NCBI RefSeq assembly: GCF_024502345.1 | Contig: NZ_JALDNN010000001.1 | Source of the DNA: Escherichia coli | GTDB lineage: Bacteria > Pseudomonadota > Gammaproteobacteria > Enterobacterales > Enterobacteriaceae | Length of the DNA stretch: 64,000 nt | Strand: one strand, 5' to 3' | Shown: piece after piece, positions 27,256 to 56,035 of the stretch | Layout: the number at the start of each line of letters is the position of its first letter | Numbering within the stretch: the stretch's first letter is position 1 | The notes under the pieces: generated by a model | Seen by the model: only the letters and a program-made list of their open reading frames with translations | What the model was told of the DNA's origin: nothing | Database searches by the model: none | Translations under genes and position numbers: made by a program

Positions 27256-27887
27256 AACGACGTGACACCATCGTGCGCTACACCGCGCCGGAACGTATCA
27301 ACCACTGGATCACCGCCTTCTGCTTCATCCTGGCGGCGGTGAGCGGGCTGGGCTTTTTGTTCCCGTCCTTCAACTGGTTGATGCAAATCATGGGCACACC
27401 GCAGCTGGCGCGAATTCTGCACCCGTTTGTCGGCGTGGTTATGTTTGCCTCGTTCATCATCATGTTTTTCCGTTACTGGCATCACAACCTAATCAATCGG
27501 GATGATATCTTTTGGGCGAAGAATATTCGTAAGATCGTCGTCAACGAGGAAGTAGGTGACACCGGGCGTTATAACTTCGGTCAGAAATGCGTTTTCTGGG
27601 CGGCGATTATTTTCCTGGTTCTGCTGCTGGTGAGCGGCGTGATTATCTGGCGTCCTTATTTTGCGCCTGCTTTCTCAATCCCGGTGATCCGATTCGCGTT
27701 AATGCTGCATTCATTTGCCGCAGTGGCGTTAATTGTGGTTATCATGGTGCATATCTACGCCGCCCTTTGGGTGAAAGGCACGATTACCGCCATGGTGGAA
27801 GGATGGGTTACCAGCGCCTGGGCGAAGAAACATCACCCGCGCTGGTACCGTGAGGTCCGCAAGATAACGGAAAAGAAAGCTGAATGA
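27252..27887 (+). CDS. fdoI: Formate dehydrogenase-O cytochrome b556 subunit, 211 aa
   Basis: [38 protein letters not shown]..., 4-TM b-type cytochrome. Confidence 0.95.
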
Positions 27888-28813: not shown

Positions 28814-28984
28814 TCTCTGACGTTTTCCGGGTGGCGCTGGTCGCCCGGATTACAGCTCATAGGGTGTGACGACACCATCTCTCGTATTCCGCGTTACCAC
28901 CTCAAGCTATGCCGCCAGTGCCGGTTTGGCCTCAATTTACCCACCACCACATCAATAAGGTTATGGGCATGAGACTGATGACAA

Positions 28985-29095
28985 GCGTAAGATTGCCTGA
29001 TGCGCTGCGCTTATCAGGCCTACCAATAAACTTCAATATATTGAATTTGCATGACTTTGTAGGCCTGATAAGGCGTTCACGCCGCATCCGGCATG
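28985..29095. repeat. REP/BIME palindromic element
   Basis: gcctgatgcgctgcgcttatcaggcctac ... gtaggcctgataaggcgttcacgccgcatccggca between fdhE and yiiF. Confidence 0.7.
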
Positions 29096-29142
29096 AACAA
29101 CGCGCACGTTGTCAGCAATCTGATTGACATCATTTTTTCCCA

Positions 29143-29361
29143 TTACCATTCCTCGCGCAGCTTACGCTGATATTCGACACCATCTTCCTCACACCCTTGC
29201 CAGATGCCAGGAACACTGGTTCTTGCTGTTTGCGATTGATTTATCAGGTATTGATCTACCGCTTCCCTTAATAGGTCCGCACGAGGAAGATTACGCTGCA
29301 CCTCGAGATCATCAAGTTGCTTAATCACCTCATTCGATAAATCGAGTAAAATTCTGCCCAT
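29143..29361 (-). CDS. yiiF: Ribbon-helix-helix (CopG-like) small DNA-binding protein, 72 aa
   Basis: ORF 29143..29385; recognised protein starts [39 protein letters not shown] (RHH fold signature). Confidence 0.75.
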
Positions 29362-29477
29362 ATCTATACCTACCAGAGAGTTCATAAATATCTCGCCAAT
29401 ATCATTTTTGAATCTATGGAGAGAAAAGTACCCTTGTCGAATCTTTAAAGAAAGCTCATTTACGAATCATTTTTTAT

Positions 29478-29499
29478 TTTTGCGAGGCGTTTTCCAGAT
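29478..29499. repeat. Copy A of a conserved ~22-bp element (tttttgcgaggcgttttccaga), about 115 bp upstream of yiiF
   Basis: Identical 22-mer also at 29927-29948; near-identical at 31151-31171. Copies A and B additionally share gttgcagtt 13 bp further on. Confidence 0.85.
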
Positions 29500-29604
29500 A
29501 TGATGTAACAGTTGCAGTTATTATAAGTTCAAGTAAAACAACCTTGTATTAATACCAGAATAAGGGCATCTGGTTTTTTATATTCAAGAATAAAAAAATT
29601 TTTG

Positions 29605-29823
29605 TCATTCCTTATGATCCTTACACTGATCATAAACACCTACTGTCTCACCCCTTTGCCTGCCTCTCTTTGCTTTACGCACCGGAAATTGCTGCCGCTC
29701 CAGATATTGCTCAACCGCTTCGCGTAAAATTGCAGATCGTGAAACCTTACGCCAGCCCCGAAGCTTGTTCAGCCGTTTAATTGCCTCTTCTGATAAATGA
29801 AGAAAAACCGTATTCATCGCCAT
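29605..29823 (-). CDS. yiiE: Ribbon-helix-helix (CopG-like) small DNA-binding protein, paralog of YiiF, 72 aa
   Basis: ORF 29605..29850; recognised protein starts MAMNTVFLHLSEEAIKRLNKLRGWRKVSRSAILREAVEQYL. Confidence 0.75.
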   Translation of the reverse strand: MAMNTVFLHLSEEAIKRLNKLRGWRKVSRSAILREAVEQYLERQQFPVRKAKRGRQRGETVGVYDQCKDHKE

Positions 29824-29926
29824 TACCACCACCTTACATATATTACTCATTAATGTATGTGCGAAAATTACGCCGGAAAATCATTTAAAAAAAGCGGATT
29901 TTTGCATGTCGTTTTGTTTTTGCGAG

Positions 29927-29948
29927 GCGTTTTCCAGAAATAATAAGA
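29927..29948. repeat. Copy B of the conserved 22-bp element, about 105 bp upstream of yiiE
   Basis: Exact 22/22 match to copy A. Confidence 0.85.
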
Positions 29949-30252
29949 GCGTTGCAGTTGTTTCATTTATTACTCAAAAATGGTTTAGTTATCGCCCAGG
30001 ATGAGTTATGGATGCTATGAATATATTATATTCAGGGATGTTTATTTTTTGATTGGATCTTTATTTGCATAATCTGAATGGTGTACCCGAAAAATGTCAG
30101 CATCCTAACAGCACCCGGATTTAAGGTGAAATTAATCATCCATCACAGACCGGTCAGTACTGCCACCAACCGGTCTTTACTTGTTCATCGTTATAATTTT
30201 GTTGGTAACAGTTCGGGAAACAAGGAATTCCTTCCGGAACCCCCCGGTATCA

Positions 30253-30342
30253 TCCGATAGCATTGACGTCAATCATCAGCGCGACGATGAGTTTTTTTAA
30301 TCGCATCATAGGGTGGCGACGTTCAGCACGATTACGGGTCAT
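30253..30342 (-). CDS. Candidate small ORF, 29 aa (MTRNRAERRHPMMRLKKLIVALMIDVNAIG), unknown function
   Basis: ATG preceded by AGGAG at 8-nt spacing (plus-strand ctcct 30351-30355); the ORF itself is below the ORF-track length cut-off. No homology recognised; may be spurious. Confidence 0.2.
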
Positions 30343-30427
30343 AGCAAAACTCCTGGGCAGGCGACCACTATGCCGCTTTCACAGGAGTTCTGAATGCTAG
30401 TGCTTTCTGTATGGCATAACCATGCCT

Positions 30428-30718
30428 CTAACGGTTAAGTGCTTGCAGCACATGTTGCGGATCATTGGCAATCGCTCGCAGCAAAGCCTTTGCAGGCCCG
30501 GTCGGTGAACGTCGCCCCTGCTCCCAGTTACGCAACGTGTCTACGCTTACAGAAATAAGATCGGCAAATTTAGATTGTGACAACCCTGAAGCGCGGCGTA
30601 TTTCTTTGATTTTCATAGCATCAACTTCAAAAGTCCGCGAAGGCTGTCGCGTTCCTTCAATAATTTCATTCATCTGGGCCATGCTGTGAGTCAACCGCTC
30701 AAAAAGTGCCTTATCCAT
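30428..30718 (-). CDS. XRE-family helix-turn-helix antitoxin (HigA/NadS-like), 96 aa
   Basis: ORF MDKALFERLTHSMAQMNEIIEGTRQPSRTFEVDAMKIKEIRRASGLSQSKFADLISVSVDTLRNWEQGRR...; HTH motif; ATG immediately abuts the stop of the upstream toxin-like ORF. Confidence 0.75.
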   Translation of the reverse strand: MDKALFERLTHSMAQMNEIIEGTRQPSRTFEVDAMKIKEIRRASGLSQSKFADLISVSVDTLRNWEQGRRSPTGPAKALLRAIANDPQHVLQALNR

Positions 30719-31030
30719 TTACCACCTCGTATTTAACAACCGGAGCATTGCTTTTCCCAGGGGAGACAGATCATCTTTAATACCCTTACGATAAATAAGC
30801 AGTAATCTGATCTCATAATGTTTAACCTGATGAAAGTAAATAACCCTGACACCAGCACGTTTCCCCTTTCCTCCTGACACCCATCGAACCTTTCTTAACC
30901 CACCAGTTTCAGGTATTACCTCACCATAGTCAGGATTCAAGGCTAGGAAAAACTGAAAACGACGGAATTCATCGTCGTTCAGCAGTTTTTGAACATCTTC
31001 AGTAAAAATTTCCGTTTCGATGAAGGGTAT
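30719..31030 (-). CDS. RelE/HigB-superfamily toxin-like gene (DUF1044 addiction-module killer type) lacking a canonical start codon; possibly inactive
   Basis: Frame open from stop at 31073-31075 down to 30719: ...IVIPFIETEIFTEDVQKLLNDDEFRRFQFFLALNPDYGEVIPETGGLRKVRWVSGGKGKRAGVRVIYFHQVKHYEIRLLLIYRKGIKDDLSPLGKAMLRLLNTRW. No ATG/GTG upstream of the TTG at 30940; the position where a start is expected from the family's typical N-terminus (M-x-FIET) is ATA (31028-31030). Confidence 0.55.
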   Translation of the reverse strand: MPFIETEIFTEDVQKLLNDDEFRRFQFFLALNPDYGEVIPETGGLRKVRWVSGGKGKRAGVRVIYFHQVKHYEIRLLLIYRKGIKDDLSPLGKAMLRLLNTRW

Positions 31031-31150
31031 AACTATACGCCATTGGCTTAGAGTAACAATCCTTTTTGTACGTCATTGACGTACCCTTGAAACCACTAGC
31101 TTACTGATAGTGCTCCAGCAAAACCCCGTCTCTGCCGGGTTTGTCTTTAC

Positions 31151-31171
31151 TTTTGCGAGGCGCTTTCCAGA
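31151..31171. repeat. Copy C of the conserved element (ttttgcgaggcgctttccaga), between the toxin-like gene and the esterase gene
   Basis: 20/21 match to copies A/B; lies about 80-120 bp upstream of the toxin-like reading frame on the minus strand and 12 bp upstream of a GTG on the plus strand. Confidence 0.8.
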
Positions 31172-31246: not shown

Positions 31247-32167
31247 ATGAGTTCTACTATGGCACTGGAAAAAGGAATTGCAGAGTTAGTCGAAGAGTTT
31301 ATCGCTGCGGGTCGCCCCTCATCGCGTCAACAAAGTATTGCACAGCGCAGGGAGGGCTATATCGCCAGCGCTGTCCTTGCGGGTGAGACAGAAACGCGGG
31401 TAGATATTCAGACTATCGAACTTGAAGGGATGACCTTACGAATAGTGTCACCGCTGAATGCCCCGACATTACTCCCGACGATAATTTATTACTACGGTGG
31501 CTGTTTTGTTAGCGGCGGGTTCGCAACTCACGACAACCAGCTGCGCCAGTTAGCCTATTACGGGCAATGTCGTGTTATTGCCGTCCAGTATCGGCTGGCA
31601 CCGGAACATACTTTCCCCGCCGCCCATGATGATGCGCAACGAGGTGCAGAATTAGTCTTGCAACACGCCGAACGACTTGGCGTTGATAAACAGCGGATAA
31701 CTCTTGCCGGTGACAGTGCGGGCGGACATCTGGCGCTGGTAACTGCTTTGCGATTAAAGCGTGCTGGCGAGTGGCAACCTGCACAACTCATATTAATTTA
31801 TCCCATGCTTGATGCGACTGCGCATTTCGAAAGCTATATCCGCAATGGTCACGATTACATCATCACACGCGATACTCTACTGAGCGGCTTTGAGATGTAC
31901 CTACCAGATATTGATCGCAAGCATCCTGAAGCCAGTCCTCTATGGCGAGATGATTTTAATGGCTTGCCGCCTGTACATATCATTACCGCTGAATACGACC
32001 CACTTTGCGATGAAGGTGAAGCGTTGTATCACCGCATGACCGAGCAAGGAGTGCAATGTACCTGCCAACGCTACCCTGGCGTTATCCACGGATTTTTTCA
32101 GTTAGGTGGTATCAGCGAGGCCGCGCGATCGGCACTACGGGATGTTGCCTGGAGAGCGGGAAGGTAA
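31247..32167 (+). CDS. Alpha/beta-hydrolase, family IV (HSL/Aes-like) esterase, about 307 aa
   Basis: ORF 31184..32167; oxyanion-hole region YYYGGCF, nucleophile elbow GDSAGG, DPLCDEG and C-terminal HGFF catalytic-His motif. Start chosen at first ATG (31247); GTG at 31184 also possible. Confidence 0.75.
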   Translation: MSSTMALEKGIAELVEEFIAAGRPSSRQQSIAQRREGYIASAVLAGETETRVDIQTIELEGMTLRIVSPLNAPTLLPTIIYYYGGCFVSGGFATHDNQLRQLAYYGQCRVIAVQYRLAPEHTFPAAHDDAQRGAELVLQHAERLGVDKQRITLAGDSAGGHLALVTALRLKRAGEWQPAQLILIYPMLDATAHFESYIRNGHDYIITRDTLLSGFEMYLPDIDRKHPEASPLWRDDFNGLPPVHIITAEYDPLCDEGEALYHRMTEQGVQCTCQRYPGVIHGFFQLGGISEAARSALRDVAWRAGR

Positions 32168-54399: not shown

Positions 54400-54545
54400 G
54401 TCATTGCACCAATATAGTGCTTAATGTTTCCATTGAAGCACTATATTGGTGCAACATTCACATCGTGGTGCAGCCCTTTTGCACGATGGTGCGCATGATA
54501 ACGCCTTTTAGGGGCAATTTAAAAGTTGGCACAGTTTTCGCTTTA
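54400..54545 (+). promoter_or_regulatory. glnA control region: NtrC enhancer sites and sigma-54 promoter glnAp2
   Basis: NtrC-type dyads tgcaccaatatagtgc, gcactatattggtgca, gtggtgcag...tgcacgatggtgcgc; sigma-54 element ttggcacagttttcgct (GG at 54528-54529, GC at 54540-54541, N10 spacing). Confidence 0.75.
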
Positions 54546-54625: not shown

Positions 54626-56035
54626 ATGTCCGCTGAACACGTACTGACGATGCTGAACGAGCACGAAGTGAAGTTTGTTGATTTGCGCTTCACCGATACC
54701 AAAGGTAAAGAACAGCACGTCACTATCCCTGCTCATCAGGTGAATGCTGAATTCTTCGAAGAAGGCAAAATGTTTGACGGCTCCTCGATTGGCGGCTGGA
54801 AAGGCATTAACGAATCCGACATGGTGCTGATGCCAGACGCATCCACCGCAGTGATTGACCCGTTCTTCGCCGACTCCACCCTGATTATCCGTTGCGACAT
54901 CCTTGAACCTGGCACCCTGCAAGGCTATGACCGTGACCCGCGCTCCATCGCGAAGCGCGCTGAAGATTACCTGCGTTCTACTGGCATTGCCGACACCGTA
55001 CTGTTCGGGCCAGAACCTGAATTCTTCCTGTTCGATGACATCCGTTTCGGATCATCTATCTCCGGTTCTCATGTTGCTATCGACGATATCGAAGGCGCAT
55101 GGAACTCCTCCACCCAATATGAAGGTGGTAACAAAGGTCACCGTCCGGCAGTGAAAGGCGGTTACTTCCCGGTTCCGCCGGTAGACTCTGCTCAGGATAT
55201 TCGTTCTGAAATGTGTCTGGTGATGGAACAGATGGGTCTGGTGGTTGAAGCCCATCACCACGAAGTAGCGACTGCTGGTCAGAACGAAGTGGCTACCCGC
55301 TTCAATACCATGACCAAAAAAGCTGACGAAATTCAGATCTACAAATATGTTGTGCACAACGTAGCGCACCGCTTCGGTAAAACCGCGACCTTTATGCCAA
55401 AACCGATGTTCGGTGATAACGGCTCCGGTATGCACTGCCACATGTCTCTGTCTAAAAACGGCGTTAACCTGTTCGCAGGCGACAAATACGCAGGTCTGTC
55501 TGAGCAGGCGCTGTACTACATTGGCGGCGTAATCAAACACGCTAAAGCGATTAACGCCCTGGCAAACCCGACCACCAACTCTTATAAGCGTCTGGTCCCG
55601 GGCTACGAAGCACCGGTAATGCTGGCTTACTCTGCACGCAACCGTTCTGCGTCTATCCGTATTCCGGTGGTTTCTTCTCCGAAAGCGCGTCGTATCGAAG
55701 TGCGTTTCCCGGACCCGGCGGCTAACCCGTACCTGTGCTTTGCTGCCCTGCTGATGGCCGGTCTTGATGGCATCAAGAACAAGATCCATCCGGGCGAAGC
55801 CATGGACAAAAACCTGTATGACCTGCCGCCAGAAGAAGCGAAAGAGATCCCACAAGTTGCAGGCTCTCTGGAAGAAGCACTGAACGAGCTGGATCTGGAC
55901 CGCGAGTTCCTGAAAGCCGGTGGCGTGTTCACGGATGAAGCGATCGATGCGTACATCGCTCTGCGTCGCGAAGAAGATGACCGCGTGCGTATGACTCCGC
56001 ATCCGGTAGAGTTTGAGCTGTACTACAGCGTCTAA
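54626..56035 (+). CDS. glnA: Glutamine synthetase, 469 aa
   Basis: [42 protein letters not shown]...; adenylylation-site region NLYDLP. Confidence 0.97.

Follow-up and report, generated by a model that had tools for sequence, protein, structure and literature searches.

In Escherichia coli, the CRP-S motif of Sinha 2009 reads T4G5C6G7A8-6N-T15T16C17C18A19, as given by Sondberg 2019 (PMC6728893); the motif is non-palindromic and has no preferred orientation relative to the promoter. At the sxy promoter (with halves TGCGA and TTCCG), Sxy-dependent activation required both of the different half-sites (Sondberg 2019, PMC6728893). CRP, the cyclic AMP (cAMP) receptor protein, bound the site of ppdD weakly, and Sxy induced ppdD 90-fold in a CRP- and cAMP-dependent manner (Cameron and Redfield 2006). 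Toxin–antitoxin operons are also found under such sites: hicAB of E. coli has a CRP-S-dependent promoter P1 and an antitoxin-repressed promoter P2, and the same layout has been proposed for toxTA of Haemophilus influenzae. A recent review adds that over-expression of Sxy induces chpSB, higBA, and hokD. Here, we describe three copies of a 22-base-pair (bp) element in a stretch of 64,000 nucleotides (nt) of E. coli DNA (contig NZ_JALDNN010000001.1, called the window below). Two of them precede the small genes yiiF and yiiE and the third lies between a toxin–nadS operon and a divergent esterase gene; all three are very probably CRP-S sites.

An asymmetric element with the CRP-S core

The 22-mer TTTTTGCGAGGCGTTTTCCAGA occurs exactly on the plus strand at two positions (copies A and B), while copy C, CTTTTGCGAGGCGCTTTCCAGA, differs from them at two of 22 nt (Table 1). 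An earlier, sequence-only reading had reported this three-copy repeat. The repeat itself is real, with the positions given for A (29478–29499) and B (29927–29948) shifted by 1 and 10 bp, respectively; the single mismatch attributed to copy C holds over the 21 nt then compared but not over 22. As that reading also had it, every copy precedes a minus-strand gene in one relative orientation (gaps of 91, 93, and 119 nt). The 9-mer GTTGCAGTT that it noted near A and B is present as well (29511–29519 and 29951–29959), past the TTCCA side of each copy, at 12 nt and not 13. The 9-mer falls within the duplicated 100-nt blocks around A and B. Among the E. coli alleles examined, nearly all retain it, and in K-12 strings containing TTGCA(A/G) occur also near the CRP-S sites of ppdA, ppdD, and ybaV.

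In 100 dinucleotide-preserving shuffles of the window, no match to the 22-mer occurs at up to three mismatches. The core TGCGA-N6-TTCCA is found exactly three times in the 64 kb, at A, B, and C only, against 0.21 expected. With one core mismatch allowed, there are five matches against 5.6 expected, which is the chance level.

All three copies match the published CRP-S core at 10 of 10 positions. The two halves of the element, TGCGA and TTCCA, differ from each other and position 6 is C instead of T, as in CRP-S sites. In the canonical CRP-N site, TGTGA-N6-TCACA, position 6 would be T and the second half TCACA, and the copies have C and TTCCA. With the T-run included, the element reads TTTT GCGA, GGCG(T/C)T, TTCCA GA, or, written in parts, TTTTGCGAGGCG(T/C)TTTCCAGA. 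We hold it very likely that all three copies are CRP-S sites of the E. coli type, asymmetric, 22 bp long and served by cAMP-CRP together with Sxy (TfoX). Given the match to the published motif, cAMP-CRP with Sxy is the binding partner to be expected, and the competence regulon probably includes the two small regulator genes and the toxin–antitoxin/esterase pair.

The promoters validated in K-12, read from NC_000913.3, offer a direct comparison (Table 1). The window copies have TTTGCGAGGC in common with sxy, ppdD, and ybaV, and one base more, TTTGCGAGGCG, with ppdD and ybaV. Identity to the sxy site is 16 of 22 positions for A and B and 17 of 22 for C. The gaps between site and ATG are 91–119 nt here (87 nt for the esterase) versus 100–127 nt for sxy, ppdD, ybaV, and ppdA. 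At sxy, ppdD, and ybaV, the TGCGA half is proximal to the gene, and likewise at yiiF, yiiE, and the toxin gene. The orientation is reversed at ppdA, as it is for the esterase gene and for the Gp49 and relBE cassettes described below, so that both orientations occur across loci.

Table 1. Candidate CRP-S sites, K-12 sites used for comparison, and other features of the locus (window coordinates)
Feature	Position	Strand	Remarks
CRP-S site A (candidate)	29477–29498	−	22-mer TTTTTGCGAGGCGTTTTCCAGA on +; core exact; TGCGA half towards yiiF; 91 nt to yiiF ATG at 29385, 115 nt to K-12 start at 29361
CRP-S site B (candidate)	29917–29938	−	same 22-mer as A; core exact; TGCGA half towards yiiE; 93 nt to yiiE ATG at 29823
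CRP-S site C (candidate)	31150–31171		divergent intergenic; core exact; TGCGA half towards toxin–nadS, TTCCA half towards esterase; 119 nt to toxin start position 31030, 87 nt to esterase ATG at 31259
sxy site (K-12)			ATTTGCGAGGCTCTTTCCGAAA; gap to ATG 126 nt
ppdD site (K-12)			ATTTGCGAGGCGTTACGAAGAA; gap to ATG 125 nt
ybaV site (K-12)			TTTTGCGAGGCGGCTTCAGGA; gap to ATG about 127 nt
ppdA site (K-12)			TTCTTCGAGACGCCTTCCCGAA; gap to ATG 100 nt; opposite orientation
yhcG site (K-12)			ATATGCGAAGAGCTTTCCTGAA; gap to ATG 106 nt; diverged copy
Duplicated block	29423–29522 (site A); partner 29863–29962 (site B)		period 440 bp; flanks 71% identical
yiiF	29143–29385	−	ribbon–helix–helix (RHH, CopG-like), orphan VapB-type antitoxin; weak RHH_1 match; K-12 annotated start 29361
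yiiE	29605–29823	−	RHH paralogue of yiiF, 40% identity
nadS, helix–turn–helix (HTH) antitoxin	30428–30718	−	NF041265 match at 60.7 bits (cut-off 60)
RelE/HigB-like toxin gene of the toxin–nadS operon	30719–31030	−	weak PF06296 match; strain M8 annotation
Sigma-70-like promoter and adjoining palindrome	31032–31084	−	TTGTTA-16-TATAGT at 31059–31032; palindrome GTACGTCA-T-TGACGTAC at 31068–31084; promoter scan and sequence
Alpha/beta hydrolase (hormone-sensitive-lipase-like esterase)	31259–32167	+	87 nt from the TTCCA side of site C

A sigma-54 promoter driving the three small genes could also be read from the minus strand of the element, CTGGAAAACGCCTCGCA, with GG-N10-GC, since GG and GC stand at the correct 10-nt spacing and point to the genes. 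With a weight matrix built from 50 sites mapped by chromatin immunoprecipitation sequencing (ChIP-seq), however, the element scores 3.7–4.4 bits, whereas true sites score at least 7.9 (median 16.1), and it ranks only about 300th among the 128,000 positions of the window. Bonocora 2015 gives one in fdoI but none at yiiE or yiiF, and genomic SELEX for RpoN likewise has none there. A sigma-54 promoter is thus extremely unlikely. An informal comparison with the marbox, the Ada box, the Hin hix half-site, the PurR, Cra, and IclR sites, and the direct repeats of response regulators gave no fit.

Duplication and conservation of the sites

The 100-nt blocks around A and B are identical at 71% of positions outside the core and at 100% in the 22-mer, and the proteins YiiF and YiiE are 40% identical. 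Read from these alignments, A and B are the product of an old tandem duplication of one cassette, with a period of 440 bp. An identical 22-mer amid flanks and proteins diverged to this extent implies that the core was held constant while its surroundings drifted. For copy C, the stretch in common with A and B is no longer than about 27 nt. Serial duplication of a single cassette, which the sequence-only reading had offered as one origin of the repeat, accounts therefore for A and B but not for C.

Within E. coli, site A has one variable position among nine alleles, and site B is polymorphic at positions 10 and 11, in the spacer. When relaxed searches and E. coli alleles are taken together, the variable positions of the 22-mer are 10, 11, and 13, all in the N6 spacer, and the outermost bases. 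Variability residing mostly in the spacer is the pattern expected of a dimeric CRP-type site. There are two exceptions. In one allele of copy A (strain 1428), T4 is replaced by C, and in E. coli strains 2/0 and 32A22CPO009, site B reads TTTTTGCGAGACGGCATCCAAAG, with the TGCGA half retained and the TTCCA half lost. The lineage of these two strains has also a 60-nt insertion further upstream of yiiE.

When 21 instances are aligned on the element as anchor, conservation is confined to tTCTGGAAAGCGCCTCGCAAa, or about 21 nt. A structured RNA or a longer unit was considered and rejected, with no Rfam match at the copies (E ≤ 1) and no information content past ~21 nt. A small conserved peptide (in the WK[TA]PRK frame) was rejected as well, with no frame consistently open in the enterobacterial loci and no consistent start.

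Could the copies be a functionless relic of the duplication, or be alike through gene conversion alone? A and B do lie within a tandem duplication, and in some strains copy B has degenerated. Against this, the core is fully identical where the flanks are at 71% and the proteins at 40%, the variation is mostly limited to the spacer, and unrelated loci in many genera carry the same 19–21 nt with zero similarity in their flanks. We regard a relic as very unlikely.

Distribution in E. coli and other Enterobacteriaceae

In E. coli, 5413 of 5426 genomes contain at least one occurrence of the element, with one to four places per genome and a median of two. The element is therefore not a dispersed repeat, and the further genomic copies do not turn it into a widespread sequence unrelated to gene starts, the finding that would have told against a regulatory role. 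The locus between fdhE and fabY is hypervariable: K-12 has A and B only, and other strains have vapC 3′ of a yiiF-like gene, DUF6708 genes, or transposases. A vapC gene follows yiiF in E. coli W4, in Enterobacter, and in Citrobacter freundii. The motif occurs at yhcG in 58% of the E. coli genomes.

Across species, TTGCGAGRCGYTTTCCAGA was scanned in one genome per species (a sample and not a census, in which the E. coli reference genome is not included), with at least 50 stretches matching. About half of the stretches listed come from Enterobacteriaceae, and those are all intergenic, with mutually unrelated flanks. The genera among the listed matches are Escherichia, Citrobacter, Enterobacter, Kosakonia, Lelliottia, Leclercia, Pluralibacter, Trabulsiella, Phytobacter, Buttiauxella, and others. 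The listed matches outside the enterobacteria fall within long open reading frames (ORFs) and look like chance. In plasmid and phage searches, the element is not phage-borne, and the plasmid matches are mostly chromosome fragments labelled as plasmids.

The genes next to the motif are often of the toxin–antitoxin or defence type. In Enterobacter and C. freundii, the motif precedes yiiF–vapC; in Citrobacter amalonaticus, it accompanies toxin–nadS next to fdhE. A RelBE cassette with the motif lies between cybC and nrdG, and Gp49/HTH toxin–antitoxin operons have it upstream in three contexts. It is also found upstream of a symE-like gene and of rhuM. Neighbours outside the toxin–antitoxin or defence type are a gene of the phosphotransferase system (PTS) in Kosakonia and the esterase, which stands at a fixed 81–90 nt from the TTCCA side in four genera (Citrobacter, Phytobacter, and Superficieibacter among them). 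In four loci of Lelliottia, Leclercia, and other Enterobacteriaceae, the element is followed at ~100 nt by a common hairpin-forming block, GCGTTGCGGCACATCCGCA...GGCGTAGGAACC, which resembles a genus-specific element of the repetitive extragenic palindromic (REP) type rather than a part of the site.

The presence of the element in many accessory cassettes and the hypervariability of the fdhE–fabY locus would suit a recombination or attachment site at the junctions of mobile toxin–antitoxin cassettes, and in the FY10 lineage yiiF has been deleted exactly up to the left edge of copy A. But when the occupied and empty forms of cybC–nrdG are compared, the element is seen ~100 nt inside the ~690-bp relBE insert, just upstream of its promoter/operator. 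No inverted partner is found at up to 4–5 mismatches, and the breakpoints of the K-12 deletion do not coincide with the copies. In FY10, the right flank of copy A still resembles the right flank of copy B, so that the FY10 state is a deletion. An attachment site is scarcely credible on these grounds.

The deletion of strains FY10 and 1428 removes yiiF with the REP region (window 28891–29479). Its junction, ctcgtatt followed by TTGCGAGG, is located precisely at the left edge of site A and has a TATT microhomology. Strain 1428 also lacks the toxin–nadS pair.

The same distribution bears on autoregulation by the RHH proteins, which the sequence-only reading had raised as a possibility. YiiE and YiiF would bind TTGCGAG and TTTCCAG (~7 bp each and 11 bp apart) with one RHH dimer on each; two of the three copies do precede RHH genes, and the two conserved blocks are one helical turn apart. 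Yet the same sequence precedes sxy, ppdD, ybaV, yhcG, the Gp49/HTH and RelBE operons, and the PTS gene, all without an RHH partner. Besides, the element is non-palindromic and does not overlap the promoter, the predicted −35 being more than 35 nt further downstream, and the yiiF promoter of Klebsiella pneumoniae has a palindrome of its own, ATCAC-TG-GTGAT, between −35 and −10. An RHH operator is thus highly improbable. The wider proposal of the same reading, a shared cis-regulatory module upstream of these genes, is upheld, with A and B derived from one duplicated cassette and the element matching the CRP-S motif.

Possible mode of action

A CRP-S site would be bound only weakly by cAMP-CRP, with transcription activated only together with Sxy. 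At high cAMP and with Sxy accumulating, CRP and Sxy would occupy the three sites and switch on an upstream Sxy-dependent promoter, reading into yiiF from site A, into yiiE from site B, and into the toxin–nadS operon from site C; site C may in addition drive the esterase gene divergently. In the toxin–antitoxin operon, a predicted second promoter near the start codon is adjoined by a palindrome, a possible operator for the antitoxin. The promoter and palindrome at 31032–31084 are candidates for this antitoxin-repressed proximal promoter. Sites A and B would have come from the tandem duplication of one cassette, with selection keeping both intact.

Several observations weigh against assigning the copies to CRP and Sxy. 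The centre of the site is at about −83 from the transcription start of yiiF predicted by a promoter scan, and at about −109 from the start inferred by homology to that of K. pneumoniae yiiF. Both distances exceed the classical positions of CRP. A separate promoter close behind the site would remove this difficulty, but no convincing −10 is seen immediately downstream of the sites. The gene yiiE is reported to be bound by H-NS and induced by SlyA. A literature search, which did not extend to Sinha 2009, gave no link of yiiE, yiiF, or yhcG to Sxy. The decay of the TTCCA half of site B in one E. coli allele lineage indicates that site B is dispensable in some strains. Finally, the near-invariant spacer bases G9, G10, and C11 have no explanation in the known contacts of CRP.

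The Cappable-seq supplements have no rows for the region, and the sole start found is that of K. pneumoniae yiiF. A literature search for the sequence of the element itself returned nothing.

Other features of the locus

The region corresponds to fdoI-fdhE-yiiF-yiiE-(toxin-nadS)-esterase-fabY-dtd of E. coli. At the start of the toxin gene (31028–31030, minus strand), the sequence is ATA CCC here and ATG CTC in strain M8, so that the canonical start codon is lost in the present strain; nadS is intact. The next in-frame start is a TTG at 30940, which would give a shortened product of 73 amino acids.

Between fdhE and yiiF, palindromes of the REP/BIME (bacterial interspersed mosaic element) type occupy 28997–29098, with the inverted repeat CTTATCAGGCCTACCAA / TTTGTAGGCCTGATAAG and an Rfam match to ES036 (39.6 bits). 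This stretch is wholly missing from strains without yiiF. An imperfect direct repeat of 34 nt (74% identity) is present at 28829–28862 and 30311–30344, 1482 bp apart. One of its copies is just 3′ of fdhE and the other 3′ of nadS, and together they bracket the REP-yiiF-yiiE block; the repeat might be the mark of an old insertion of that block. In C. amalonaticus, toxin–nadS directly adjoins fdhE.

The best sigma-54 match of the window is CTGGCGCGAATTCTGCA, at 27405–27421 (+) inside fdoI, with 17.9 bits. Its sequence is identical to that of IS47, an intragenic site found by ChIP-seq in Bonocora 2015 and located 468 bp upstream of fdhE. A second strong sigma-54 promoter-like site, TTGGCACAGTTTTCGCT, at 54526–54542 (+), is upstream of an ORF of 469 amino acids (54626–56035). 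Its sequence departs at a single base from the K-12 glnA site TTGGCACAGATTTCGCT (Bonocora), and the ORF is therefore presumably glnA.

Discussion

The type of element described here is already known, and the gain is incremental. The assignment to cAMP-CRP with Sxy nevertheless provides a concrete and testable regulation for yiiE and yiiF, long uncharacterised, and for a toxin–antitoxin/esterase module that varies between strains. It is plausible that the K-12 sites of yiiE and yiiF are already contained in the tables of Sinha 2009, since the published half TTCCA is that of yiiE and yiiF, whereas the sites of the competence genes carry TTCCG, ACGAA, TTCAG, and TTCCC. Site C lies in DNA absent from K-12, and the association of such a site with diverse toxin–antitoxin and defence cassettes across genera appears undescribed in the literature searched.

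A broader proposal is put forward only tentatively, and we consider it rather doubtful: near-consensus CRP-S sites could be a recurrent feature of horizontally acquired cassettes of the toxin–antitoxin or defence type across the Enterobacteriaceae. The examples comprise VapB-like yiiF with or without vapC, RelE-like/NadS, Gp49/HTH, RelBE, SymE-like, RhuM, YhcG, and the esterase. If this were true, the part of the Sxy/TfoX regulon in the accessory genome would be much larger than the competence genes of K-12, Sxy would link the uptake of DNA with a programme in which toxin–antitoxin and defence genes are expressed, and the conserved GGCG of the spacer would belong to what Sxy-CRP reads. Near-consensus sites in several unrelated cassette families and in many genera could then help to explain the purpose of the cryptic Sxy regulon of E. 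coli.

Among the known systems, the closest site is that of the sxy promoter (Jaskolska and Gerdes 2015; Sondberg 2019), with the same asymmetric halves, TGCGA and TTCC(G/A), and the same 6-bp spacer. In the distal half, sxy has TTCCG and the window copies have the consensus form TTCCA. The gene sxy encodes a regulator of competence, the genes of the window are RHH, toxin–antitoxin, and esterase genes, and Sxy dependence is experimental for sxy but inferred for the window sites. In ppdD, ybaV, and ppdA (Cameron and Redfield 2006), the second halves (ACGAA, TTCAG, and TTCCC) are less consensus-like than the TTCCA found here, and these genes belong to the DNA-uptake machinery, unlike those of the window. 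The CRP-S sites of H. influenzae are palindromic (PMC6728893), contrary to the window sites.

For the operon next to site C, the comparison is with hicAB and toxTA, which are toxin-first type II operons under a CRP-S site, with a second, antitoxin-repressed promoter close to the start codon. The pair toxin–nadS shares their gene order and adds to an emerging pattern in which toxin–antitoxin modules are wired to the competence regulator, the known cases being these two operons. The closest resemblance to the element upstream of K-12 hicA is ATCAGGAAGGAAGATTCCAGAA, 113 nt ahead of the ATG, which has the TTCCAGAA half without the TGCGA half. The toxin families are different, HicA in one case and a weak match to the RelE family PF06296 in the other. 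In other Enterobacteriaceae, Gp49 toxins (PF05973) occur downstream of the same 19-mer, and ToxT is assigned to COG4679. In sequence, toxin–nadS resembles hicAB in its layout, with an upstream site of the CRP-S type and, adjoining a palindrome, a sigma-70-like promoter in proximal position.

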